Assembly: GCA_037130925.1 (NCBI GenBank)
Contig: JBAXSC010000001.1
Location: 253,877-317,876 of the forward strand
Source of the DNA: Candidatus Nomurabacteria bacterium
GTDB taxonomy: Bacteria > Patescibacteriota > Minisyncoccia > Phycocordibacterales > UBA5272
DNA: 64,000 nucleotides
Direction of reading: 5' to 3'
Shown here: one piece after another, positions 1 through 38,988 of the stretch
How the letters are laid out: each line of letters starts with the position of its first letter
Numbering within the stretch: the stretch's first letter is position 1
Position numbers and translations under genes: made by a program
The notes under the pieces: model-generated
What the model was told of the DNA's origin: nothing
Databases searched by the model: none
Seen by the model: the letters and a program-made list of their open reading frames with translations, nothing else

Positions 1-1325
1 GGAATACTGTTTTTGTTTCTTCATATTCTGCTTTAACAACGTTATTTGTAACTGTAGGCATAGTTGGAATACTAGCAATACTCTCTGTGATAGCCGCAGT
101 ATTCTTAGGTATTTATATAAGTGTAAAAAAATACAATAAAAATTCAGAACTAGGTGAGGATGGGGCAGAGAAATTCTATTTTATCTCATCAATTGCTTTA
201 TTTGTATTTTCAACAATTTCGTTCTTAGTATTTACAAATGTAAGTTTCGCTATAATTCTTTTTGCTTTATCAACAGGATTAGTAATTTCAAACATTACAT
301 CTTGGAAAGAAAAAGATTCTACAAAAATTACAAATATTATATTCTTAGCTTTTGCTTTAATTATTCTATTAGGATTTGTTATAGCTTTTAATAGAGTTAG
401 AAGTACATCTTTATCTGTTAATGCTCTAACAGAATACAAACAAGATAATGATATTGCAAAATTAGAGATTAATCTTGTAAAAGCAGCTAAAATTTCAGGT
501 GATGATAATGACTACAGAACACTAACTCAATTCTATGTATTTAAAGCGCAACAAGTATTAAACACAACGTCAGCAAGTACTACAGCTGACGTGCTACAAA
601 AAAATATCTTATCTGACATAAATAATGCTATTTCTTCAGCTAAAACAGCCATAAGTGTTGACGATCAAAATTATAATAACTATCTTACTCTTGCTTCTAT
701 TTATAATTTCTTAATGTCTATTGGCGGTGAAAAAAGAGACATGTACTATAAAGAAGCAAAAGATAATTATGGATTAGCTCTTAATCTTTATCCAAAAAAT
801 CCATCAATTCCTTTAACTGTTGCCAACTTGGAATATTCTTACAATCAAAACCCTACTACAACATTAGTAAACATTAAACAATCTTTATCAATTAAGCCAA
901 ACTATTCTTCTGCTTATTACACACTATCCCAATTAGCAGCAAAATATAATGATAGAAATTCAGCTATACTTTATGCAGGACAAGCTATACAAACTGATCC
1001 TCAAAATGTAGATGCATATCTACAATATGGAATATTAACTCTTAATAAAAAAGACGTGACACAGAACGATCTAAATCAAGCATACACAGCATTTGTATCA
1101 GTATTAAGTATTGATCCAAATAACGTCACAGCGGCTTATTATTTATCTATTACCTATATCTTAGCTAAAGATTATGATCATGCTCAAGCTTTGATTACAG
1201 CATTAACCAAAGTTACGCCAAACGATCAAAAGATAACAGATCTTCAATCATTCCTTAATTCTCAAAAAGGAGGGACTTCCACACCTGCACCAGCAACAAA
1301 AACATCTAAAACAACAAAAAAGTAA
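1..1325 (+). CDS. TPR-repeat integral membrane protein (5' end outside window)
   Basis: The frame of ORF 87..1325 stays open back to nt 3, so GTG-87 is probably internal. Hydrophobic segments are followed by TPR-like repeats (AYYTLSQLAAKYND, DAYLQYGILTL, AAYYLSITYILAKDYD). Confidence 0.6.
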   Translation, partial: NTVFVSSYSALTTLFVTVGIVGILAILSVIAAVFLGIYISVKKYNKNSELGEDGAEKFYFISSIALFVFSTISFLVFTNVSFAIILFALSTGLVISNITSWKEKDSTKITNIIFLAFALIILLGFVIAFNRVRSTSLSVNALTEYKQDNDIAKLEINLVKAAKISGDDNDYRTLTQFYVFKAQQVLNTTSASTTADVLQKNILSDINNAISSAKTAISVDDQNYNNYLTLASIYNFLMSIGGEKRDMYYKEAKDNYGLALNLYPKNPSIPLTVANLEYSYNQNPTTTLVNIKQSLSIKPNYSSAYYTLSQLAAKYNDRNSAILYAGQAIQTDPQNVDAYLQYGILTLNKKDVTQNDLNQAYTAFVSVLSIDPNNVTAAYYLSITYILAKDYDHAQALITALTKVTPNDQKITDLQSFLNSQKGGTSTPAPATKTSKTTKK

Positions 1326-1432
1326 TTAATATTAATTACTTAAATAAAAAACAGTCTTTATAGGCTGTTTTTTATTTAACATCTTAACTTTTAATTTTAT
1401 TTAATTAAATTAAGATGTTAATATATTTATAT

Positions 1433-2725
1433 ATGAAAAAATATTTCTTTATTTTGTTTCTTTTAATTTTACAAATATCTTTTATAAATAATTCTCTTGC
1501 TGCAAATTATTTACCAAAAACCTCTTTTTCTTATTCTGTATGGATACCATATTGGGCGAGATGGGGAGGAACGGATGAATTATTGGCAAGTTCTACAATT
1601 TCTGGAATAAGCTATAATTCAAATTTCAATTCCACAACTTCTGTATCAAATTTTTATGGTTCAACTTCTTCAAAAATGAATCTTGATAAACTTGATATAA
1701 TTTCTCCTTTTACTTTTAATGTTGACAGTACAGGGGCTTTTTTAGATAAGGGAAATTTAAATAATGATACTTTTAATAATCTAATTAAAATAGCACAAGC
1801 AAAAAAGATTAAAATTTATCCTACAGTTCTTTGGACAGACGCAAATCAAATGGATAAAGTTTTATCTGATAAAGATTTACAGCAAGCCATACTTACTGAT
1901 ATAGAATTCAATTTAAATAAGTATAATTTTGATGGAATAGATATAGATTTTGAAGGTAAAAAGGCTTCTACAAAAAATAATTTTTCTTCTTTATTAAAAT
2001 TAGTTTCTATAAATTTACATAAAAAAAGCAAAGGTTTAATCTGTACAATTGAAGCACGTACACCTTTAGTGGATACATATTCTAAGCTTACAAATCAAAC
2101 AAGAAATAATGTCGAATATGCAAATGATTATTCTGTAATTGGAAAATATTGTGACCAAGTGAGAATTATGTCTTATGATCAAATAGGAGATGACACATAT
2201 TTAAATAATATTAATAAAAATATTTATTATAGACCAGTATCAGACACAGCTTGGGTAGAAAAAGTTATTAAAAATACTATTAAATATGGAATTCCTGCAA
2301 ATAAACTAGTTTTAGGTGTTGCAACTTATGGATATAAATATGAAGTAGCCACAAATACAACTGCAACTACTACAAATAATAATAAACCAGATAAATATGG
2401 AAGTGTATTATTAAATAATCAATCAAATTATTCATACGGTAGAATAGGTAGTATGAATTATTCTTTTGCAAATGACTTAGCTAGAAGTTTAAATATAGTT
2501 CCGACAAGAAATAGTGGAGGCGAGTTAGAATTTTCATATTCTTCTACTACAGATATTAGTAATACAACACCTGGAGTTTTAAAAACTTATTATGTAGAAT
2601 ATTCTGATAGTAAAGCAATAGAGCAAAAAATAGCTTTAGCCAAGAAATATAAACTTGCAGGTATTTCCATATTTAAAATAGACGGAAATAATGACCATAA
2701 TATCTGGAATATAATAAAGAAGTAA
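1433..2725 (+). CDS. secreted glycoside hydrolase family 18 (chitinase / cell-wall hydrolase-like)
   Basis: FDGIDIDFEG matches the GH18 DxxDxDxE catalytic motif. A signal-peptide-like MKKYFFILFLLIL starts at the second Met (the ORF opens at 1415). Confidence 0.75.
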   Translation: MKKYFFILFLLILQISFINNSLAANYLPKTSFSYSVWIPYWARWGGTDELLASSTISGISYNSNFNSTTSVSNFYGSTSSKMNLDKLDIISPFTFNVDSTGAFLDKGNLNNDTFNNLIKIAQAKKIKIYPTVLWTDANQMDKVLSDKDLQQAILTDIEFNLNKYNFDGIDIDFEGKKASTKNNFSSLLKLVSINLHKKSKGLICTIEARTPLVDTYSKLTNQTRNNVEYANDYSVIGKYCDQVRIMSYDQIGDDTYLNNINKNIYYRPVSDTAWVEKVIKNTIKYGIPANKLVLGVATYGYKYEVATNTTATTTNNNKPDKYGSVLLNNQSNYSYGRIGSMNYSFANDLARSLNIVPTRNSGGELEFSYSSTTDISNTTPGVLKTYYVEYSDSKAIEQKIALAKKYKLAGISIFKIDGNNDHNIWNIIKK

Positions 2726-27943: not shown

Positions 27944-29671
27944 ATGACTCAATCCGAAGCTCTCGACATTTTAAAAATGGGACATTCTGTATTCTTAACT
28001 GGTGCTGCCGGCACTGGAAAAACTTTCGTATTAAATAAATATATAGAATATTTAAAAACTCACGATATCAATCCAGCTATCACAGCCTCAACTGGTATCG
28101 CAGCGACACATATTGGAGGACAGACTATTCACTCTTGGAGTGGAATAGGTATCTTAGACAAGCTCGATAGATACGCACTCGATAGACTAGAGCAAAATGA
28201 AAAGCTTTATAAGAGATATGAAAATATAAAAGTTTTGATAATAGACGAAGTATCAATGCTCCACTCTTCTCGTCTCGATATGATAAATAAACTTTTCAAA
28301 ACTTTTAGAAAAAGTGATAAACCTTTTGCTGGAGTACAGATAATTTTTTGTGGAGACTTTTTTCAACTTCCACCTGTAGTTAAAAATTCTTCTTCTGATT
28401 TTGGAAGCGAAAAAGAATTCGCCTATCACTCAAATGCTTGGCAAGAATTAAATCCAGTGATTTGCTATCTCTCGGAAAATTATAGACAAGATGATGAACA
28501 TTTATTAAAAATGCTAAATAATATTCGCTTTGAAAGAGATATAGAAGAAACTCATAAAAAATTAGAATTAAAAATAAAAAGTAAAAAAGAATTAGACAAA
28601 GATGTGATAAAACTTTTTACTCATAATATCGATGTCGACTCTATTAATAAAAAAGAATACGATTCACTTGATCAAGATGAAAAAGAATATAGATTTGAAA
28701 TGTATGAAAAAGGAAAAAAGAACTTAGTCGATGGATTAAAAAATAATTGTCTCGCTCCAGAAATTTTAAATTTAAAAATTGGAACAAAAGTTATTTTTGT
28801 CAGAAATGATATCAATAAACATTATCAAAATGGAACACTTGGAGAAGTGGTAGATTTTGATATTACAGGACTCCCTATTGTAGAAACTTTTGGTAAAAAA
28901 AGAATTACTACCGATCGTGAAGATTGGCAATTAACAAATGATGATGGAAAAGTATTAGCGGAAATATCACAAATCCCTCTACGCTATGCCTGGGCTATCA
29001 CAATTCATAAATCACAAGGAATGACACTCGATGCGGCCGAGATAGATCTCGCAAAGGCTTTTGGGTCTGGTATGGGATATGTTGCACTTTCTCGTGTACG
29101 AAAATTAGAAAATATTAAATTATTAGGAATTCATCCTGACGCTCTAAATGTAAATAAAGATGTCTTGAGACAAGATAAAGTCTTTAGAGAAAAATCAGAT
29201 CGTGCTAGTACTGCTCTCGAAAAATATTATGAGAATGACGAAATGAAAAAGAAGCTTGCTAAAAAACAAGAAATCTTTATTGAAATGTCTGGCGGTAGTC
29301 TCGAAGCTCACGAAATAAAAGAAGAAGAATTTGAAGAAAAAATAAAAGTTAAAACAACTACTGTGACTTTAGAATTTATTAAAAAAGGAATTCTTCCAAA
29401 AGAAATTGCTGAAAATAGAGATCTCACACTTGGGACAATAGTCGGACATGTCGAAGAACTTTTTGAGTCAAAAGAAATAAATGAAAAAGATATAAAATAT
29501 ATTTTAAAAGATATTGAAAAACATTATTCTTCAGCTGATATGAAAACTATTAAAAAAGTTTTGAAAGAAGATACTGGCCTCAAAGCAAAACATATTAAAT
29601 TAAATACTAAAGAAAAAATAGATATAGATTTTCACACTTTGAAATTATTAAGATTGGAAATCGAGAAATAA
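27944..29671 (+). CDS. Pif1/RecD-like SF1B helicase with C-terminal HTH-like domain
   Basis: GAAGTGKTF Walker A, LIIDEVSML, FCGDFFQLPPV and AITIHKSQGMTLD motifs. The C-terminal segment LTLGTIVGHVEEL looks HTH-like. Confidence 0.8.
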   Translation: MTQSEALDILKMGHSVFLTGAAGTGKTFVLNKYIEYLKTHDINPAITASTGIAATHIGGQTIHSWSGIGILDKLDRYALDRLEQNEKLYKRYENIKVLIIDEVSMLHSSRLDMINKLFKTFRKSDKPFAGVQIIFCGDFFQLPPVVKNSSSDFGSEKEFAYHSNAWQELNPVICYLSENYRQDDEHLLKMLNNIRFERDIEETHKKLELKIKSKKELDKDVIKLFTHNIDVDSINKKEYDSLDQDEKEYRFEMYEKGKKNLVDGLKNNCLAPEILNLKIGTKVIFVRNDINKHYQNGTLGEVVDFDITGLPIVETFGKKRITTDREDWQLTNDDGKVLAEISQIPLRYAWAITIHKSQGMTLDAAEIDLAKAFGSGMGYVALSRVRKLENIKLLGIHPDALNVNKDVLRQDKVFREKSDRASTALEKYYENDEMKKKLAKKQEIFIEMSGGSLEAHEIKEEEFEEKIKVKTTTVTLEFIKKGILPKEIAENRDLTLGTIVGHVEELFESKEINEKDIKYILKDIEKHYSSADMKTIKKVLKEDTGLKAKHIKLNTKEKIDIDFHTLKLLRLEIEK

Positions 29672-29724
29672 AAAAAGCCCCTCAAGAATGAGGTGCTTTT
29701 TGCAAAAGATCTGATTGTGAATAT

Positions 29725-30231
29725 TTATCCACGAGCTAATCTTAATGCTAAAACAAATCTTTTCCATCTTGGCAACTTATGTGTCGCCAAGATTTCTTTC
29801 ATTGTTTGATAAAGAATTTTAAACTGGGTAACTTTAACCTGTTCTACTTCAAAAGAAATAGTTGGAGCTATAGACCCCGCATGAATCTTTTCAAGCAAAA
29901 TCTCCATGTCTTTAATACCATCCCAAGAACTAGTTTCAATAAGAATAGAATTCTCTACTTTACTAATGTAATGAAAAGTAGCTTTAGCCTCTCCAAAATA
30001 ATAAACTCCGTAAGTTCTATGACTTACAAACTGCACGGTGTTTGATAAATAAGAAGCAGAAAGAAAATGTTTCTTAAAAAGACTTTCTTTTTCAAGAAAA
30101 ACTTTTGGAAAACTAACATCAACACGAGGACAACTTGCCCAGTCGTAAACTGTTACTCCACAAAGCTGACGAGAAGCAAAATCTGATAAACCATCTTTGA
30201 TTGTCCAGTCTTTTTCTAATTCTGGAGTCAA
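29725..30231 (-). CDS. hypothetical protein (168 aa, TTG start)
   Basis: Long ORF, visibly less AT-rich than its neighbours, with no recognisable motif. The first ATG is only at codon ~109, so initiation is uncertain. Confidence 0.4.
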   Translation of the reverse strand: MTPELEKDWTIKDGLSDFASRQLCGVTVYDWASCPRVDVSFPKVFLEKESLFKKHFLSASYLSNTVQFVSHRTYGVYYFGEAKATFHYISKVENSILIETSSWDGIKDMEILLEKIHAGSIAPTISFEVEQVKVTQFKILYQTMKEILATHKLPRWKRFVLALRLARG

Positions 30232-30278
30232 ATTTAAATATAAACGTACTGAAATTTTTCACTCATTTCTCCGATCAT

Positions 30279-30298
30279 TGATAACTGAATTGTTATCA
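30279..30298. promoter_or_regulatory. operator-like palindrome TGATAAC-N6-GTTATCA
   Basis: 7-bp perfect arms at 30279-30285 and 30292-30298, with a third TGATAA half-site at about 30307. It lies in the predicted 5' UTR of ORF 29725..30231. Confidence 0.4.
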
Positions 30299-30333
30299 TA
30301 CGTCTTTGATAATAAGGTAATATACGTATATCA

Positions 30334-30362
30334 TAATATATATATATATATATATATGTCAA
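30334..30362 (-). promoter_or_regulatory. promoter whose spacer is the (AT)11 tract
   Basis: Minus strand reads TTGACA + (TA)n + TATTAT/TATGAT. TATATT falls at 16 nt and TATTAT at 18 nt from the -35. Confidence 0.45.
30336..30357. repeat. (AT)11 dinucleotide microsatellite
   Basis: 22 nt of uninterrupted AT repeats directly abutting a minus-strand TTGACA (30357-30362). Confidence 0.95.
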
Positions 30363-30395
30363 GCATAATATAAGCAAACCAATATTTTAATATTA

Positions 30396-30424
30396 TTGAT
30401 TAATAATATTTTCTGTACTATAAT
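30396..30424 (+). promoter_or_regulatory. promoter of the 51-aa peptide gene
   Basis: TTGATT at 30396-30401, 17-nt spacer, TATAAT at 30419-30424. Confidence 0.55.
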
Positions 30425-30469
30425 TAATCAGGATTTAAACAATATTTTCTTTTCATTAAAAAACACAAG

Positions 30470-30625
30470 ATGACACAAGAAGTTATTACACCAGTGACTA
30501 CCATATTGCTAGAAATAGTATCTGCGATTGGTCTGGTTATTGTAATGATTATTCCTTTCATCTTGTTTAAAAATAGAGAAGATGAACATGTAATAAAAAA
30601 TTACAATAAGAATATAAAATTCTGA
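30470..30625 (+). CDS. 51-aa single-TM peptide (below the ORF-track cutoff)
   Basis: Reads MTQEVITPVTTILLEIVSAIGLVIVMIIPFILFKNREDEHVIKNYNKNIKF, with its own near-consensus promoter and a TGA stop. Confidence 0.4.
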   Translation: MTQEVITPVTTILLEIVSAIGLVIVMIIPFILFKNREDEHVIKNYNKNIKF

Positions 30626-30656
30626 CAATCAATTATTAATTGAAAGCCAGAATTTT

Positions 30657-31652
30657 TTATTTCACAAAATACATGTCTTGATTATAATCAGAGATACCAA
30701 TATACTCCACATCTTTTATTTCTTCTCCATCAAGATCGAGATTGATAGTATTTTCAGAAAAATTCTTTTTACCACCACCGCTTTGAATAAATTTATAAAC
30801 TTTTTCAAAATCACGACAATATCTACAACCTTCACCTTCTACAGTTTCGTTTTTACATTTATACTCCCCTTTTTCTCTCAAATTTTTAATTTTAATTCCT
30901 ATTTCTAAAATCTTTTTTTCTGTCTCTTTTATATCTTCCAATTTTCCTTCATCAATTTCTATGACATGAAATTCATCATGCTCACTATTTTCTTTTTTAT
31001 TATCATGATCGAGATACCAATAAGCCGCTTCTTTTATTTTATAAATTTTCTTAGAATTTTCTTTCATTAAATTCGTAATCAGTAAATAATAAATTGGAAA
31101 TTGAAATGAATCATCATCTTCATCATTGCGACCAGTTTTAAAATCAACTATTCTGATAGCGTCATCTTTTTCTAAATATTCGGTCCAGTCTATAGATCCA
31201 CATAAAATTAAATTTTCCTCTGTACTCAAATAATAATTTGGTATCATATCTCCTTTATAAAAATAGTTTAAAGGAATTATCTTATTTAATAAAATTCCAG
31301 GATTTGCGACAACTCTCTTTATCATTTCTTCACCACGAGAAAAAAAACTATTTTCTTCTTCGAGGTCTTTGAATCCTCCTTTTTTTCCTTTGTATTTATT
31401 CCATTCTTTTCTAAAATTTTCTAAAAGATTTTCTTTGATTTCTTTTTCTCTTTCATCACTTTTTATTTTCTTTAAATCTTCGATGACTTTATGGACCGCG
31501 ATACCGAGAGTGAGATATGGTGAAGCGATATTTATTTTTCTGCGAGTTGATGGATCTTTATAAACATTTTTCAAAAAATAAAGTCTGTCACATGACAAAA
31601 AATCATTAATAGAAGAATGTGATATCCAAACTGATTTGTATTTATCGGGCAT
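30657..31652 (-). CDS. Cas4/AddB-like PD-(D/E)XK nuclease with Cys cluster
   Basis: GSIDWTE, IVDFKTG (D/ExK) and QFPIYYLL (QxxxY) motifs. Cys21 plus a C-terminal C-x9-C-x2-C is reminiscent of Fe-S nuclease domains. Confidence 0.7.
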   Translation of the reverse strand: MPDKYKSVWISHSSINDFLSCDRLYFLKNVYKDPSTRRKINIASPYLTLGIAVHKVIEDLKKIKSDEREKEIKENLLENFRKEWNKYKGKKGGFKDLEEENSFFSRGEEMIKRVVANPGILLNKIIPLNYFYKGDMIPNYYLSTEENLILCGSIDWTEYLEKDDAIRIVDFKTGRNDEDDDSFQFPIYYLLITNLMKENSKKIYKIKEAAYWYLDHDNKKENSEHDEFHVIEIDEGKLEDIKETEKKILEIGIKIKNLREKGEYKCKNETVEGEGCRYCRDFEKVYKFIQSGGGKKNFSENTINLDLDGEEIKDVEYIGISDYNQDMYFVK

Positions 31653-31751
31653 GGTTTTTGAAATGTTTTTTTAAATAAAATGTATTTTCGCGAGTTTTCG
31701 CTTGCGTGGCGCACGAGAGAAAATATATTTTATTTATGAAAAGATAATTTC

Positions 31752-34700
31752 TTATATTTTACCATTTAAAAGATCTTCTTCAAATTTCTCAATATCTTTT
31801 AATGTTAATTCTTCTTTTTTTAATCCCGTCTTTTCATTTATGAAATATGATGAAGTATCTGGAAAATCTAAATTCATGACTTTTTGATAAACTATTTTTG
31901 TTAAACTTTTAACTCTTTCTAAAAGCTCTTCATCTATGTCAAGCTCTAAAATATTTATTTTCTTTTTTGAATCTGCCTCAAGGAATTCTATATATCCAGA
32001 TTCTAATTCATATCCATTATAGCTCCTTGAATTTTTAATAAGAATAGAATAAAAAGCTAATTGATATTTAAAGAAGTGAAGCTTGATCTTGTCATAAGGA
32101 CTACTACCATCATCCCAATCTTTAAAACTCTTCCCTGTTTTGAGATCTGTCACTTTTACTTGATTACCAAGAATTTCCATTTTATCTATCTTTCCTGTTA
32201 ATTGAGCATTATCAAGAGTCACGCCTTCATTTGCGAAATTTACTTCGACTTCTATTTTTCTATCTTCTTTTCTTTCTTCTAAATCTTTCAAATAAATTTC
32301 TAAATTCTTTACTCCTGATTCATAATATTTATCAAAATCTATTTTATCTAAGCTTCCTCTCTCGAGAGCTTTTTTAAAATAATTAATTATTTTTTCTAGA
32401 TCTGGTTTTTCTTCATATTTTTTAAAATACAAATAATAATTTTGCATCGCTTCATGCATCGCAGATCCATAGACTGAGCTGGCTGTCATAGCCTGAGGAA
32501 AGCGAAGAAGGTTTTGCTCGATGAATTTCTCTGGACCAATTTTGCTAATATTCAAAAAGTTAATGAGATGCGTAACAGGCATTTTATAATTTTCTAAAAG
32601 TCTCTCAAGTAAAATCTTTTCATCTTCGATCAATGGATTTCTCTCTGTGATATAGAGACTATTCACTATATTTTTATTGATACCTGAGCTTGTCGAAGGG
32701 TCAGAATTTTCTAAATTCTTTTCTTTATTTTCTTTCATCTCTTCTTCATTTTCATCACTTAATAATTTAGAAAATTTAGTACTATTATTTGTAATATATA
32801 AAGTATGCTTCGCACGAGTCATAGCCACATAATAAAGTCTCACTCTATCATTAATATCATCACTCGCTGGAAGAAGTGGTAGATTAACAGGCATATCAAT
32901 TTTGTTGGCACGCTTTTTACCATTCCATTCATCTTCATCACTATTCATAATAAAAACATATTCATACTCGAGACCTTTACTCTTGTGAGCAGTCTGTAGA
33001 ACTATCGCATTTTTACTTGTCGCAAAAGGAGAAGTTAAAGTCAATGAAAGATTATTGTTGTTACTATAAATTTCTACAAAAGTTTTTAAATCTTTTGCAT
33101 ACAAAATCTCTCCATTTTTATACTCTCTCAAGACACCCATAAATGTACGAAGTGCGAAGAGAAAATCAAGATATTCTGGCTTGTTGTGCTCAAAATTATC
33201 TTTACCGAAATAATACTCTCTAAATGGCGAAATATAGCCCGTAGAGAGGCTTTTCACCTCATCACCGTCATCTACACTACTATCTATCTCCCACTCTCTA
33301 GTGCCTATTATTTTGTCTAATAAATATGGCAATGGCATTGATTTACTATCAGCTATCAGATCTATTAAAAATCTCGCAATATTCGCAACTTTTTCATCTT
33401 TACTATTTAGCATGACAGATATCCAAGAAACTCTGTTTTTTATTTTCTCTCCAAATTCTCCGATAGATATTTCTCCAGCTCTAACTTCTTCTGCTATTTT
33501 CCAGATAGTCAGTCTATCAATATTCCAAAATTTATAAGACAAAATCTCTGGAAGAAAATCTTCTCTCATATTTTCTGTACCAGTATCTACAAACTCGACT
33601 ATCTTTATCAATTCTTTTATCGGCTGTTTATCAAAAACATTTTCTTTTTTCTCATAGCTATATGGCAACTTATGCTCATTTAAAATCTGTGCCATCAATT
33701 TCAAATTTGCATGACTACGAGAAATAATTGTGATCTCTTTTGGATCAACTTTTTTATCTAAAATATTTTTTATCTCTCTCGCTATGAAATCCATCTCATG
33801 ATGTGGATTATCAAAACTCTCTCTGATTATTTTTCCGCCATGCTTTTCTAAAAGCTTTTTATTTTCTGCTCGGATATTTTTATTAATATCTTTTGGGAAT
33901 CTCACCTCGAGTCTGTCATCTATTTTTGTAATTAAATTTCTAGCTTGATCGAGAATGTTTTGAGTTGATCTATAATTTTTATTTAAAGTGATGAGCTGTA
34001 CACCTTTGTAGCTATTTATAAACTTTGTAATATTATCTAGCTCTGCTCCTTGGAATTTAAAAATAGCCTGATCATCATCACCGACGGCCATAACATTTGG
34101 TCTACCCTCATTGACTGGATTACTTGTCAGATTTTTCACTAAAGAAAATTGTGAGTCAGATGTATCTTGGAATTCGTCTATCATAATGTATTGATATTTT
34201 TCTTCAAGCTCACCACGAAGTGCCTCATTCTTTTCTAATTCATGAGAAACTTTAAATATCATGTCATCAAAATCGTAAAATCCTTTTTCATACATTGCTA
34301 AATTATATTTCTCATACACATCAGCGAGTGAGAGCCACTTTTCTATTTTTCCATCTTTACTATCTTTTAAAATTAAAATCCCATCTTCATTTCTCGTAAA
34401 GTAATTATCTTTCCAAGATGTGAGATTGTTCGCCTTTCCAGAATCTTCTGATTGCTTTATTTCTAGAGAAAGAGTAGTAGATAAAAATCTCGCTGTATCA
34501 TTATTTTTAATATTAATTAACTCTCTATAAATATTGAGATACGCATCACGCAAAACATCATATTTACTTTTACCTTTTATCTCAGCAAAGATTTCTCCTA
34601 ATACATTATTTACTTCTTGATATTCTTCTTGATTTTTATTTATCACATTTTTCCATTCTTCTCCTGTGAGATTTCCTTTTTTTAAGGCAGAGATAGTACT

Positions 34701-35180
34701 CAAAATATCATATAGATATGTATAGCCGAGCTCTGGATGACGAGAAGAAAGAGGATTGTCACGATTTAATTTTTCTAAAATATTTTCTAAAATTCCAATT
34801 CTCTCTACATCACTAGCCGGACGAAAACTCGCCCCTTCAAAAAAGTATTCTCCGTATCTACTCATCACATCACTCGCAAATGCATGGAAAGTATAAATGG
34901 CGACTCTGTATCCTGCCTCACCTATCAATCCGACTAGTCTCTCTCTCATATTTTGCGCTCCACTCTCTGTAAATGTGAGAAGCAAAATATTCCCAGCGGA
35001 GACTTGAGTCTCTTGCAATATCTTTGCAGTACGAAGTCCGAGCAACTCTGTCTTTCCACTTCCTGGTCCAGCGACAACGAGCACAGGCCCGTCGATCATA
35101 TCGACAGCCATTCTTTGTTTATCGTTTAGAGAATTATATCGATCTTGAAATGTTTTTGAGGATTTTTGAGAGTGGGTCAT
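31752..35180 (-). CDS. UvrD/PcrA-type SF1A helicase fused to a C-terminal RecB-like nuclease (AddA-like)
   Basis: AGPGSGKT, IMIDEFQDTS, VGDDDQAIFKFQGA and NYRSTQNIL motifs. The C-terminal part has GKIDKME...VTDLKTGK...YQLAFYSIL (PD-(D/E)XK). Confidence 0.85.
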   Translation of the reverse strand: MTHSQKSSKTFQDRYNSLNDKQRMAVDMIDGPVLVVAGPGSGKTELLGLRTAKILQETQVSAGNILLLTFTESGAQNMRERLVGLIGEAGYRVAIYTFHAFASDVMSRYGEYFFEGASFRPASDVERIGILENILEKLNRDNPLSSRHPELGYTYLYDILSTISALKKGNLTGEEWKNVINKNQEEYQEVNNVLGEIFAEIKGKSKYDVLRDAYLNIYRELINIKNNDTARFLSTTLSLEIKQSEDSGKANNLTSWKDNYFTRNEDGILILKDSKDGKIEKWLSLADVYEKYNLAMYEKGFYDFDDMIFKVSHELEKNEALRGELEEKYQYIMIDEFQDTSDSQFSLVKNLTSNPVNEGRPNVMAVGDDDQAIFKFQGAELDNITKFINSYKGVQLITLNKNYRSTQNILDQARNLITKIDDRLEVRFPKDINKNIRAENKKLLEKHGGKIIRESFDNPHHEMDFIAREIKNILDKKVDPKEITIISRSHANLKLMAQILNEHKLPYSYEKKENVFDKQPIKELIKIVEFVDTGTENMREDFLPEILSYKFWNIDRLTIWKIAEEVRAGEISIGEFGEKIKNRVSWISVMLNSKDEKVANIARFLIDLIADSKSMPLPYLLDKIIGTREWEIDSSVDDGDEVKSLSTGYISPFREYYFGKDNFEHNKPEYLDFLFALRTFMGVLREYKNGEILYAKDLKTFVEIYSNNNNLSLTLTSPFATSKNAIVLQTAHKSKGLEYEYVFIMNSDEDEWNGKKRANKIDMPVNLPLLPASDDINDRVRLYYVAMTRAKHTLYITNNSTKFSKLLSDENEEEMKENKEKNLENSDPSTSSGINKNIVNSLYITERNPLIEDEKILLERLLENYKMPVTHLINFLNISKIGPEKFIEQNLLRFPQAMTASSVYGSAMHEAMQNYYLYFKKYEEKPDLEKIINYFKKALERGSLDKIDFDKYYESGVKNLEIYLKDLEERKEDRKIEVEVNFANEGVTLDNAQLTGKIDKMEILGNQVKVTDLKTGKSFKDWDDGSSPYDKIKLHFFKYQLAFYSILIKNSRSYNGYELESGYIEFLEADSKKKINILELDIDEELLERVKSLTKIVYQKVMNLDFPDTSSYFINEKTGLKKEELTLKDIEKFEEDLLNGKI

Positions 35181-35280
35181 AAATAATTTTACTATTTAGT
35201 TTCTTTAATAATGGATAAATTATAACATTATTAAGATTTTAAAAATATATTTAAAATAGTGTTAAAATATATTTAATTTT

Positions 35281-35757
35281 ATGAAATTAAATATTTATAT
35301 AGACGGAAACAATTTATATCGTTCTGCAAAAGAACTTGGATTTGAAATTGATTATAAAAGATTTCGTATTTGGCTAACACAAAAATATAATACAAAAGAT
35401 ATATTTCTATTTATAGGTTATCTAGAAAATAAAAAAGATTTTTATAATTATTTAAAAGAATGTGGATTTAATTTAATATTCAAAGAAGCAATTTTGCATG
35501 AAGGAAATATAAAAGGTAATTGTGATGCTGAACTTGTATTAAAATCTGTAGACGATTTTCACCTTAAAAATTTTGATAAGTCTATACTCGTTTCAAATGA
35601 TGGTGACTTTGGATGCTTGGTAGAATTTTTAATACAAAAAGATGTATTTGATACTATAATTTCACCCGATAGAAATAAATGTTCTATTTTATTAAGAAAT
35701 AAGACTAATAAGCTTTTATATTTAAACGAAGTATATAAAAAGTTTTCTAAAAAATAA
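35281..35757 (+). CDS. NYN/LabA-like (PIN-fold) ribonuclease domain protein
   Basis: IYIDGNNLY, GNCDAEL and VSNDGDF acidic motifs typical of the NYN domain. An extended -10 TGtTAAAAT lies at 35260-35268. Confidence 0.7.
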   Translation: MKLNIYIDGNNLYRSAKELGFEIDYKRFRIWLTQKYNTKDIFLFIGYLENKKDFYNYLKECGFNLIFKEAILHEGNIKGNCDAELVLKSVDDFHLKNFDKSILVSNDGDFGCLVEFLIQKDVFDTIISPDRNKCSILLRNKTNKLLYLNEVYKKFSKK

Positions 35758-35883: not shown

Positions 35884-37977
35884 CTAATTCTCTTTATAAT
35901 CTTCACCCTTTTTCAAAACTTTAACAAAAATACCTTGTATTTTTACTTCTTCATCGTATGGAGTTATCACAATATCTTTATGTCTTGAATTTGTAGAATT
36001 AGGTTTCAAAATAACATTACCACCTTTTGTTCTGTATTCTTTTAAAATTGCATCATCACCCATTAAAGCTACAACAATATTACCATCTACAGGATGATAA
36101 TCTTTTCTACACAAAACCAAATCACCATCATTAATATTTTTCTTATTCATAGAATCACCATTAGTTCTTAATACAAAATATTTTCTTCCTTTATACATAA
36201 GATCATCTTTAACTAGTAAAGTATCAGTTGGTACTGAGTCTGCAGTCCTTGTATCTCCACAACCAATTGAATCGTACAGTTCAACATTTCTGGTTATAAA
36301 ATCCTTTATCAAATATGGAGATATTATATTTTTATAATCATTCTTTTTAACAAAATTTTCTTTTTTTATTTCTTTAGAAAATTCTTCTGTAATATATTTT
36401 CTTAAATTTTCATCACAAATATAAACATAAGTACCTTTTATAGCTCTAGTCAAAAGAACTTTATATATATTTAAAACATAATTTAATAATTCTCCATAAG
36501 AATCTAAAGATCTTTTTCCATTAATATCTTTATATAATTCTTTTTTTACAATAAGTTTTTTATTTTCAAAATCATAAGAAAGTTCTGGACCAATAATAAC
36601 TCCAGCATAATTTAGATCGTATCCTTGAACTGTATGTATACACCCAATTTCATTAATAGCATTTTTAGAATAAATCCAATTATCATTAGTGGAATTCCAT
36701 CTTAAAGACAAATTATCTATTTCTATATCAAATTTTGAAATATCTTTTTTGGATTTCCACTCCCACGCATACCCAGCAAACATTCTACATATTCCAAATT
36801 CTCTATCTTTTTTCTTTATCAAATTAATCATTTCATCTAAATTATCAAAAATTTTAAATTCATAATTTTTAAAATCTTTAATTTTAAAAATTTCATTACT
36901 AAATAATTTTTTTATATTACTTATATATTCTTCACCGCCTTGCACACGAAGTTGTGTACTTAATTTATAAATTATTGGATCTTTAACTATTTCTTTAAAT
37001 AAATCATGTCCTATATCAGACGGAGTAACACTTTGATCTTTATCATAAAAAAATATTTGATATTTTGATTTTTCCATAATCCAATGAAGTTGAGTTCCTT
37101 TGTTTATATCTAATCCTAATTTAATATTAGTATCATCGAAAGCTTTCATATTAGAATTATTTTTTCTTGTTCTTAATCTATGAGATTCGTCTATTACCAA
37201 TATGTCATAACTTTCATTTGAAACGTCTGAAGGGCCAATAACATTTACTTTTTTCAAAGATTTTATATTTCTCACAACTTTCTTTAGTGTTTTTCTTAAG
37301 GAAGTCATAGAAACAACAAGACCAATTTTATAGTCTTTTGTACTTTCTTTTTCTTTTAACATCTTTATAAGATATAAAGCTAAAATAGTTTTACCTGTAC
37401 CAGCTCCACCATTTACAATAAATGATTTTTCTTTTTCTATCTTAATATTTTCAAAAATAGAATCAGCTATATTTATTTGGTCTTGTGTTAATGCTGTGTA
37501 TGGAGAGTATTTAAATAAATCGCTATTCTTTAACTCCATTAAATCTTGAGTTACTAATTTAAATTCTTTCAACTTGTCCCATATAATTCTTATTTTAGAT
37601 TCTCTTCTATCTTTATCAAAATAATTATGATCTACCTCTCCTTCATTTTTATTTTGTAAAAAATATTTACCATCAGCAGATAAATATCTTATTAACAATG
37701 ATTCAATATCTAAAACTACAGATTTATTAGCTTCTGTATCATATACAATATAAAAGTCTTTTAAAGAATTTCTTTGTTCATTTTTAAAATGAGTAACTAA
37801 TCTACTAATTGCACTATGTGTTTGACCAACATACATTTCTTCCTTTCCTGAGATAAGGTACACGACTGGCCAATTCACACCAAAATCAGTATTTTTTAAT
37901 TGATCAAATCCTTTATCGTCAAAAGACATATGACTCAAAGAAATATCTTCTTCTTTTTTATTAGGATTCTCTTTCAT
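35884..37977 (-). CDS. GIY-YIG-like nuclease / DUF2075 P-loop helicase-like ATPase / S24 LexA-UmuD peptidase fusion (697 aa)
   Basis: Residues 38-111: VVYLISG..MYVGQT..R59..E92..N (GIY-YIG pattern). Residues 190-197: GGAGTGKT, followed by VIDESHRL and FFYDKDQS (DUF2075-like). Residues 572-697 align to the LexA/UmuD catalytic domain (GDSM Ser609, LKEY Lys646, Cys573-Gly574 cleavage-site motif). Confidence 0.8.
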   Translation of the reverse strand: MKENPNKKEEDISLSHMSFDDKGFDQLKNTDFGVNWPVVYLISGKEEMYVGQTHSAISRLVTHFKNEQRNSLKDFYIVYDTEANKSVVLDIESLLIRYLSADGKYFLQNKNEGEVDHNYFDKDRRESKIRIIWDKLKEFKLVTQDLMELKNSDLFKYSPYTALTQDQINIADSIFENIKIEKEKSFIVNGGAGTGKTILALYLIKMLKEKESTKDYKIGLVVSMTSLRKTLKKVVRNIKSLKKVNVIGPSDVSNESYDILVIDESHRLRTRKNNSNMKAFDDTNIKLGLDINKGTQLHWIMEKSKYQIFFYDKDQSVTPSDIGHDLFKEIVKDPIIYKLSTQLRVQGGEEYISNIKKLFSNEIFKIKDFKNYEFKIFDNLDEMINLIKKKDREFGICRMFAGYAWEWKSKKDISKFDIEIDNLSLRWNSTNDNWIYSKNAINEIGCIHTVQGYDLNYAGVIIGPELSYDFENKKLIVKKELYKDINGKRSLDSYGELLNYVLNIYKVLLTRAIKGTYVYICDENLRKYITEEFSKEIKKENFVKKNDYKNIISPYLIKDFITRNVELYDSIGCGDTRTADSVPTDTLLVKDDLMYKGRKYFVLRTNGDSMNKKNINDGDLVLCRKDYHPVDGNIVVALMGDDAILKEYRTKGGNVILKPNSTNSRHKDIVITPYDEEVKIQGIFVKVLKKGEDYKEN

Positions 37978-38321
37978 TATAATTTATTATATTTTTTATG
38001 ATTTCCTTTCGCTTTATCTACTGGATATTTTTCTTCATTCTTAGTTTGTTTTTTATCTAAAGCTTTCAAGACGTCAATATTTAAATCATAACTCATAAGT
38101 AAAACCCAATACAAAACGTCTGCCAACTCGTCACTTATATCTTCTTTATGTTCTACAACATATTTATCTAACTCTTCTCCATTCTTCCACTGAAAATGTT
38201 CTAATACTTCTGTAGATTCTAAAACCAAAGATAAAGCCAAATCTTTAGGATTGTGAAATTGCTTCCAATCTCTAGCATCTCTAAAATCAACTATTCTTTG
38301 TATAAGATTTTCCAAATTCAT
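37977..38321 (-). CDS. MazG-like all-alpha nucleotide pyrophosphohydrolase
   Basis: RDWKQFHNPKDLALSLVLESTEVLEHFQW and SDELADVLYWVLLMSYDL (EExxE/D helices). The ATG at 38321 is preferred over the track TTG at 38384. Its stop overlaps the next ATG (TAATG). Confidence 0.7.
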   Translation of the reverse strand: MNLENLIQRIVDFRDARDWKQFHNPKDLALSLVLESTEVLEHFQWKNGEELDKYVVEHKEDISDELADVLYWVLLMSYDLNIDVLKALDKKQTKNEEKYPVDKAKGNHKKYNKL

Positions 38322-38328
38322 ATAGTAT

Positions 38329-38337
38329 ATTATAGCA
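38329..38337 (-). promoter_or_regulatory. extended -10 promoter of the mazG-like operon (predicted leaderless)
   Basis: The minus strand reads TGcTATAAT, 7 nt upstream of the ATG at 38321. Confidence 0.5.
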
Positions 38338-38387
38338 CCAAGATAAATATTTAAAAACACTTCGATTTCTCGAAATGTTTTCAAATT

Positions 38388-38858: not shown

Positions 38859-38922
38859 AATTTTGTTTTTATTTATTATAGCAAAATAAAAGCATCTCAA
38901 TTTCTCGAGACGCTTTTAAAAA

Positions 38923-38988
38923 CTATTTAGGTTTTTCTTGTTTTGGTTTTTTCTTCTCTTTTCTTTGTGAAAAATTTCCTTTTGCCAT
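38923..38988 (-). CDS. 21-aa lysine-rich micro-ORF (MAKGNFSQRKEKKKPKQEKPK)
   Basis: It has its own extended -10 (TGgTATAAT, 39028-39036 on the minus strand) and its own hairpin terminator (about 38890-38920). Coding status is uncertain. Confidence 0.3.
   Translation of the reverse strand: MAKGNFSQRKEKKKPKQEKPK

Follow-up and report, generated by a model that had tools for sequence, protein, structure and literature searches.

The 64-kb window analysed here (64,000 nucleotides, positions 253,877 to 317,876 of contig JBAXSC010000001.1, assembly GCA_037130925.1, Candidatus Nomurabacteria bacterium) carries on its minus strand a gene for a 697-residue protein in which a GIY-YIG-like nuclease, a Schlafen-type (DUF2075) superfamily 1 (SF1) helicase and a C-terminal Peptidase_S24 domain of the LexA/UmuD type are joined in one polypeptide, with a gene for a MazG-like nucleoside triphosphate (NTP) pyrophosphohydrolase directly upstream (Table 1). 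The protein is identical to the NCBI entry 'DNA/RNA helicase domain-containing protein [Candidatus Nomurabacteria bacterium]', which comes from a metagenome-assembled genome (MAG), and automated annotation elsewhere already names both of its parts (JGI 'DUF2075 family protein/SOS-response transcriptional repressor LexA'). An earlier reading of the stretch, made from the sequence alone, had proposed that the C-terminal domain retains an intact Cys-Gly cleavage site and Ser/Lys dyad and acts as a proteolytic switch rather than being a decayed domain. The codons it assigned to Cys573-Gly574, Ser609 and Lys646 were all borne out by direct reading of the DNA.

Table 1. Coordinates of the nuclease-helicase-S24 gene, its predicted parts and its neighbours in the 64-kb window.
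Feature	Position	Strand	Basis
GIY-YIG-like nuclease / Schlafen-type (DUF2075) SF1 helicase / Peptidase_S24 fusion gene, 697 aa	35884..37977	minus	Open reading frame (ORF) and Pfam domains
Peptidase_S24 (LexA/UmuD-type) domain, residues 567-685	35923..36279	minus	Pfam, PDB sequence matches, Foldseek
Predicted scissile bond Cys573-Gly574, codons tgt gga	36256..36261	minus	LexA/UmuD alignment; invariant 120/120
Ser609, predicted nucleophile (G-D-S-M), codon tct	36151..36153	minus	Aligned with LexA S119 / UmuD S60; invariant
Lys646, predicted general base, codon aaa	36040..36042	minus	Aligned with LexA K156 / UmuD K97; invariant
Cys623, family-specific invariant cysteine at LexA Val133 position	36109..36111	minus	Invariant 120/120
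Predicted disordered linker between helicase and S24, residues 539-558	36304..36363	minus	AlphaFold2 pLDDT <50; ends of tail-less relatives
SLFN-g3/DUF2075 SF1 helicase core, residues 185-522	36412..37425	minus	Pfam PF09848
GIY-YIG-like nuclease domain, N-terminal, ~residues 30-118	37624..37890	minus	Invariant columns, PADLOC PDC-S14, marginal PDB profiles
MazG-like NTP pyrophosphohydrolase, ~114 aa from ATG at 38321 (probable start)	37977..38321	minus	PF12643 E=4.9e-16
Terminator-like hairpin after bcp (38349-38386), then extended -10 box TGCTATAAT (38329-38337)	38329..38386	minus	Consensus match
Pif1/RecD-like helicase with C-terminal HTH_40	27944-29671	plus	
PD-(D/E)XK protein	30657-31652	minus	
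AddA-like UvrD-type helicase, 1142 aa, C-terminal PD-(D/E)XK	31752-35180	minus	
NYN/LabA-like protein, convergent with the S24 gene	35281-35757	plus	

The C-terminal tail is a complete S24 domain

Peptidase_S24 (PF00717) matched the tail over profile positions 2-116 of 116 (E=5.7e-20), scoring 71.6 bits where the cut-off is 23.3. The best named NCBIfam models for the tail were those of LexA and UmuD, and LexA scored higher: TIGR00498 aligned with residues 565-690 over model positions 80-201 (E=2e-18; 66.5 bits, under its 110.95 cut-off), and the UmuD model NF007621 reached 52.6 bits (under its cut-off of 110). A phmmer search of all PDB sequences returned LexA and UmuD chains only. It placed 'sigCGdtr' of the tail opposite the cleavage site 'eirAGekr' of Thermotoga maritima LexA and, in the alignment with Escherichia coli LexA, GDSMN opposite GMSMK (Ser119) and ILKEY opposite TVKRL (Lys156). 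In a profile built on the S24 region of this protein's own family, Cys573-Gly574 corresponded to LexA Ala84-Gly85 and UmuD Cys24-Gly25, Ser609 to LexA Ser119 and UmuD Ser60, and Lys646 to LexA Lys156 and UmuD Lys97; the LexA part of this alignment agrees with the phmmer alignment. The scissile bond and the serine are 36 residues apart, compared to 35 in LexA and 36 in UmuD. No LexA_DNA_bind or helix-turn-helix (HTH) match was obtained in Pfam for residues 1-560, nor was there an HTH remnant between the helicase and the S24 domain.

The protein qualifies as a member of peptidase family S24 by profile score, by the placement of the Ser, the Lys and the internal Cys-Gly bond, and by a predicted LexA-like beta fold. 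It is not LexA, given the missing HTH and the score under the cut-off, and it is not UmuD, given a score under the cut-off and no umuC; neither umuC nor any other Y-family polymerase gene is present among the annotated neighbours (the MazG-like, Bcp, NYN and AddA-like proteins). Scissile bond, serine and lysine fall on the same LexA positions in the profile alignments as in the sequence-only reading, which had aligned them by eye; a different placement, which would have counted against that reading, was not seen, and its fragment sizes of 573 and 124 residues are correct. Its statement that all elements for self-processing are present likewise holds, with the Cys-Gly, Ser and Lys aligned and strictly conserved. 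Its description of Cys-Gly as the UmuD variant of the site proved too narrow, because the free-standing LexA-like repressors nearest to this S24 domain (P0128-P0157; ~200 residues, with winged HTH/LexA_DNA_bind) have Cys-Gly and not Ala-Gly, and the LexA model outscores that of UmuD.

Compared to LexA, the protein shares the S24 fold (TM 0.89-0.90), the Ser/Lys dyad, a scissile X-Gly bond some 35 residues ahead of the serine and the hydrophobic pocket residues described below; with both LexA and lambda CI it also shares the order of parts, being effector, flexible linker, cleavage loop and S24 domain. It differs from LexA in that the winged-helix domain is absent and replaced by a nuclease-helicase of ~540 residues, in not being a transcription factor, and in its P1 residue, which is Cys here and Ala in LexA. 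UmuD has the Cys-Gly bond and the 36-residue spacing in common with it. However, UmuD sheds an N-terminal arm of 24 residues, whereas here an enzyme of 573 residues would be freed.

The cleavage site and the dyad are invariant across the family

Among 5.8 billion proteins, a search recovered the identical protein, on a 321-kb contig, and 119 further clusters with 47-76% identity, and both PF09848 and PF00717 were present in every one of these 120 homologue clusters. Cys573, Gly574, Ser609 and Lys646 were invariant in 120/120, as were Y600, F601, G607 and M610. Judged from this alignment, the invariance of the catalytic residues is far beyond chance, and such strict conservation across a large family argues for a working self-processing module. 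On the same grounds, decay of the domain and an artefact of assembly are effectively excluded. The proposition that a misassembly or frameshift fused a lexA-like gene to the helicase, or that the S24 domain is degenerating, has a negligible probability in our estimate, since the same architecture recurs in protein clusters, more than 120 of them, whose assemblies and sources are independent, no HTH remnant separates the domains and the catalytic residues do not vary. The tail was also found in 47 of 83 full-length relatives, taken mostly from 185,579 species-representative genomes, a scan of which gave more than 596 relatives and from which 87 loci were examined.

A further cysteine follows the same pattern. 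Cys623 lies in the motif LVLC at the position of LexA Val133, which is Val also in UmuD; it was invariant in 120/120 Cys-Gly homologues and was replaced by Phe in both Ala-Gly forms from Bacteroidota. A link between Cys573 and Cys623, in the form of a disulfide or of redox control, is possible.

Predicted structure of the cleavage loop and the RecA pocket

The AlphaFold2 (AF2) model of the full-length protein had a predicted local distance difference test (pLDDT) score of 85, with values below 50 in the linker (residues 539-558) and about 60 in the cleavage loop, which is flanked by strands at residues 562-572 and 585-590. When the S24 domain of this model was compared with known structures by Foldseek, it matched 1jhe_A with a template modelling (TM) score of 0.90 at 2.0 Å, and 8gms_A and 8s7g_A with 0.89 at 2.1 Å. 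Open forms of LexA fitted the full-length model worse, with TM 0.78-0.80 at 3.5-4.3 Å for 7b5g, which we take to be such a form, and TM 0.76 at 4.8 Å for 8b0v_A. The assignment of 1JHE, 8GMS and 8S7G to the closed, cleavable state and of 8B0V to the open state follows PMC11787620. A mobile loop is, in our interpretation of the models, what the two-state mechanism of LexA would lead one to expect.

In LexA, the pocket that receives Phe203 of RecA is formed by V79, V82, F111, L113, V146 and V153 (10.1101/2023.10.30.564768). The equivalent residues here are Y568, I571, F601 (invariant), L603, V636 and A643, and their hydrophobic character is conserved in all of them. Conservation of the pocket is compatible with stimulation by RecA filaments and is no proof of it. 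It would also fit an S24 domain that serves mainly for docking or dimerisation, targeting the enzyme to RecA filaments or keeping it dimeric, without self-cleavage as the regulatory event. The C-terminal domains of LexA, UmuD and CI dimerise and bind in the groove of the RecA filament, according to a 2023 PNAS article (PMC9926225), and the defence protein Nhi works as a dimer (10.1101/776245). Such a role would not require an invariant Cys/Ala-Gly, Ser and Lys in more than 120 sequences, in two divergent subtypes and in a distant Bacteroidota clade. Moreover, S24 relatives that are not catalytic usually lose their catalytic residues. We consider a mainly docking function distinctly unlikely, and return to self-cleavage below.

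The tail behaves as an exchangeable cassette

The S24 tail is absent from the other 36 of the 83 full-length relatives, whose sequences run only as far as the equivalents of residues 533-539, where the predicted linker (539-558) starts. This fits a detachable regulatory module. Such forms occur in Patescibacteria, in Clostridium spp., and in MAGs labelled Gammaproteobacteria, Woesearchaeota and others. The cores of tail-bearing and tail-less proteins are up to 79% identical, and the tail-less modules of Clostridium spp., Bacillus thuringiensis plasmids and other Patescibacteria share ~50% identity over residues 14-530.

Two subtypes of S24 were distinguished in Patescibacteria, subtype A (G-C-G, 'ALIGDDATIKEY'), to which the window protein belongs, and subtype B (P-C-G, 'ALLGGENVTIKYYDKKDGRR'), and both retain Cys-Gly, Ser and Lys. 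Mean identity of the S24 domain was 58% within A, 72% within B and 42% between A and B, while the identity of the cores was equal in all three comparisons. In pairs such as L005/L011 and L016/L022, S24 regions (equivalent to window positions 35887-36294) only ~45% identical were found on cores that are 85% identical. Near-identical cores with divergent S24 domains indicate that the tail has been swapped between cores. Together, these comparisons suggest that the S24 tail behaves as an optional, exchangeable regulatory cassette. Counting the gains and losses of the tail on a neighbour-joining tree of the core was also tried and set aside as not robust enough, the tree being star-like with tail-bearing and tail-less proteins interleaved.

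An Ala-Gly form of the fusion was found in 2 Bacteroidota proteins, one from a Chitinophagaceae MAG and one from the cultured Mangrovivirga halotolerans M17. Their tails contain a more divergent S24 domain that is above the Pfam threshold and has Ala-Gly together with Ser and Lys. The M17 fusion (L087 4001-6160, NZ_JAPFQN010000004.1) comes from a cultured isolate and has a MazG-like gene upstream, making it an experimentally tractable orthologue. The tail-less enzymes offer natural controls.

A search with the junction-spanning residues 500-640 against 1.84 billion representatives gave only ~20 clusters at 50% identity that span the junction, among them more distant fusions of 730-795 residues. 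Phage and plasmid collections yielded no fused form, only tail-less cores and separate S24 repressors, with the tail-less cores on Bacillus and Clostridium plasmids and a few gut phage contigs. At one locus (L051), a canonical LexA with HTH and S24 and the Ala-Gly site 'ITAGKP' (940-1521, minus strand) lies ~2.5 kb from a tail-less MazG-like/DUF2075 module, which indicates that a canonical LexA and the module can share one contig.

The nuclease-helicase core

The helicase assignment is strong (PF09848, residues 185-522; E=7.5e-68; 229.8 bits against a cut-off of 24). Its motifs are intact, with Walker A GGAGTGKT at residues 190-197 and Walker B/DExH VIDESHR at 261-267, and G190, G193, T194, K196, D263, E264, H266 and R267 were invariant among the 120 homologues. 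Foldseek matched this part of the model to SLFN11, Dna2, RecD, Upf1 and nsp13. Human SLFN11, of Schlafen group III, has PF09848 in common with the protein in addition to the structural match, but is only ~12% identical, has another N-terminal nuclease and lacks S24.

The GIY-YIG assignment of the nuclease domain is weaker than the other domain assignments. Y40, Y49, R59, H63, E92 and N109 were invariant among the 120 homologues, and PADLOC PDC-S14 matches cover residues 36-114. Profile comparison with the GIY-YIG structures of T4 endonuclease II, the UvrC N-terminal domain and I-TevI was marginal (E 0.2-0.35). PF01541 (GIY-YIG) gave 18-22 bits in relatives, just under its 22.6 cut-off and sub-threshold in 4/4 tested; precomputed annotation lists it for 8/120 homologues, and the window protein had no PF01541 match at E<1 in Pfam. 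Residues 1-572 matched none of the PDB sequences.

The nearest described defence proteins are Nhi of Staphylococcus epidermidis (SERP2475) and the Nhi-like protein of Millman et al. 2022, in which, likewise, one polypeptide joins a nuclease at the N-terminus to a DUF2075 SF1 helicase. Nhi is anti-phage, dimeric and a proposed sensor of phage replication intermediates (10.1101/776245; Millman et al. 2022). The likeness is one of design. Nhi carries a PD-(D/E)XK nuclease whereas a GIY-YIG-like domain is found here, and only the N-terminal half of the helicase matches, the PADLOC Nhi model (PDLC02372) aligning residues 151-393 with model positions 172-376 of 470 (E=1.7e-16). The accessible parts of the Nhi papers mention neither an S24 tail nor a MazG-like partner for Nhi. 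With a partial match and another nuclease, the protein is best classified, from its profile matches, as a DUF2075/Schlafen-type helicase outside the Nhi family proper.

A two-gene module with a MazG-like partner

The stop codon of the MazG-like gene overlaps the start codon of the nuclease-helicase gene by one base (37977). Of 87 related loci, 86 have a MazG-like gene next to that of the nuclease-helicase, co-oriented and directly upstream in 84 and divergent in 2; the single locus without it has no upstream sequence. In five independent homologue contigs the MazG-like gene is directly upstream while all other neighbours differ. The pair was found in Patescibacteria, Clostridium, Bacteroidota and on Bacillus plasmids, with the MazG-like gene kept beside tail-bearing and tail-less enzymes alike, and on Bacillus thuringiensis megaplasmids it lies beside zeta-toxin and HNH genes. 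Since this neighbour is shared while everything else varies, the conserved unit is a two-gene module of MazG-like and GIY-YIG/DUF2075 proteins, which this analysis defines.

With so constant a partner, the S24 domain could be thought to act in trans, on the MazG-like protein, on a LexA-like repressor or on a phage protein, its own Cys-Gly loop then being a pseudo-substrate or inhibitor. UmuD offers an example of intermolecular cleavage within dimers. However, the MazG-like gene is equally conserved beside tail-less enzymes and is thus independent of the protease, and the internal site has the canonical 36-residue spacing to the serine in a loop that aligns with those of LexA and UmuD. We regard action in trans as very unlikely.

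Behind the terminator-like hairpin after bcp, the gene for the peroxiredoxin Bcp just upstream of the module, comes an extended -10 box, TGCTATAAT, that ends 7 nt before the ATG of the MazG-like gene. From this arrangement the module would be transcribed as a unit by itself, probably starting at that -10 box, and the short distance suggests a leaderless or near-leaderless mRNA. A similar hairpin lies upstream of bcp (38887-38918, minus strand) and also has an extended -10 box, TGCTATAAT, after it; a lysine-rich mini-ORF of 21 codons, MAKGNFSQRKEKKKPKQEKPK (38923-38988, minus strand), stands just before it. The core shared by the hairpins, TCGAGAAAT(C/T)GA, was considered as a signal and rejected, as its 2 matches in the window are no more than expected by chance, and we read the hairpins as terminators. 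LexA boxes of the types GAAC-N4-GTTC and CTGT-N8-ACAG were not enriched over shuffled sequences in the upstream regions of the MazG-like gene at 77 loci, and TGTTC-N4-TGTTC was present in 5/77 loci against ~1.6 expected, a weak signal found in tail-bearing and tail-less loci alike; the box types searched for may not be the patescibacterial LexA motif.

Genomic neighbourhood

In the window, a cluster of DNA-processing genes (27944-35757) adjoins the module. The upstream bcp gene is not conserved at other loci. Elsewhere the neighbours of the module vary and are often defence or toxin genes, such as RhuM, RhuM-Fic and Xre-SocA (Panacea) (L001 4608-5645 and 8127-8813; L005 9243-10223) and Bro-N, and at L006 (9078-11850) an M78 peptidase and HTH pair with a Multi_ubiq/ThiF/BubE ubiquitin-like system lies near it. 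These neighbourhoods are defence-island-like. The varied defence and toxin genes, carriage on plasmids, swapping of the tail and the partial PADLOC Nhi/AbiO matches are all pointing to a role in defence. The window has a G+C content of 24-35%, its ORFs read cleanly under genetic code 11, and it contains throughout its 64 kb no tRNA genes and no Rfam families at the gathering threshold.

Discussion

Self-cleavage of the LexA type is the textbook switch by which bacteria respond to DNA damage; to our knowledge, the proteins established to use it are repressors (LexA, phage CI and relatives) and UmuD, a subunit of Pol V that is activated by cleavage to UmuD'. We read the tail described here as a LexA/UmuD-style autoproteolytic switch, probably stimulated by RecA filaments, on an Nhi-like nuclease-helicase, and put the probability of this reading, drawn from computation, at about 0.55. 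The part of the sequence-only reading that denied decay holds well, with an intact and conserved module and with relatives that end at the linker; for the switch itself we infer that cleavage occurs, that RecA is the trigger and that the outcome is activation rather than inactivation.

On this proposal, the effector of the two-gene module would be a nuclease-helicase that gained, through a flexible linker of ~20 residues, a complete LexA-type S24 domain including its own substrate loop. In the resting state, the cleavage loop would stay mostly outside the active site, as in LexA, and the S24 domain would restrain or dimerise the enzyme. A RecA filament that assembles on single-stranded DNA, where DNA is damaged or phage is replicating, would stabilise the closed loop through the conserved hydrophobic pocket, and Ser609 with Lys646 would then cut the Cys573-Gly574 bond. 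This would free the 573-residue nuclease-helicase, probably the active form. After cleavage the enzyme would closely resemble its naturally tail-less orthologues, and for this reason activation, or release from a dimer or tether, seems to us the likely outcome, as in the conversion of UmuD to UmuD'; the activating cleavage of UmuD would be the best functional analogy.

Several observations weigh against this proposal. In an AF2 model of the isolated domain, residues 570-581 had pLDDT below 50 and the domain fitted open forms of LexA better. The predicted-structure check suggested with the sequence-only reading, namely whether the loop docks in the active site, thus gave conflicting models, the full-length one being closed-like at a loop confidence of only ~60. 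The residues of the RecA pocket also belong to the core of the domain and are not specific evidence of RecA binding. A tblastn search of the 64-kb window found neither recA nor lexA, and RecA is presumed to be encoded elsewhere in this genome. The direction of regulation is a guess from the tail-less orthologues, and the frequency of these relatives indicates that the tail is dispensable for the function of the core. Finally, the module may act in phage defence or in DNA repair.

A trigger other than RecA is a serious rival, although on balance we think it rather unlikely. Self-cleavage would then answer to a conformational change that the helicase undergoes on engaging DNA or ATP, to a phage protein, or to redox state or pH. 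Most characterised S24 switches rely on RecA filaments, and the hydrophobic pocket for RecA Phe203 is kept. Some LexA-like proteins do cleave without RecA, as is reported of IrvR (PMC7101444). Cys573 and Cys623, both invariant, could take part in such a response; the Bacteroidota forms have Ala and Phe in their place, a paired replacement that rests on two sequences. The two exchangeable S24 subtypes could mean different triggers, and a peroxiredoxin gene lies just upstream in the window, though it is not conserved elsewhere.

Returning to a RecA-stimulated switch, a fuller version of it can be outlined only tentatively, as an 'SOS gate'. RecA filaments on phage intermediates or damaged DNA would trigger cleavage of the tail and release a nuclease-helicase that works with the MazG-like pyrophosphatase; the swapped S24 alleles would be the outcome of an arms race against phage factors aimed at RecA or at the SOS response, or of a fit to different RecA L2 loops. 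This version is a possibility that we consider doubtful in its entirety. Literature searches found no published description of a DUF2075-S24 fusion or of a MazG-like/DUF2075 module.

These results describe an intact LexA/UmuD-type module on a nuclease-helicase of ~570 residues whose family is conserved in many Patescibacteria and in some Bacteroidota. Were the enzyme gated by cleavage, there would be a direct link at the protein level from RecA filaments to an activity that degrades or unwinds DNA, a link that bears on how bacteria with minimal genomes respond to damage or phage. If the 'SOS gate' version were true, the cleavage principle of LexA and UmuD would reach beyond transcription factors and a polymerase subunit and take in a large DNA-processing enzyme, and the genome-reduced Patescibacteria would gain a response to damage or infection that is free of transcription.

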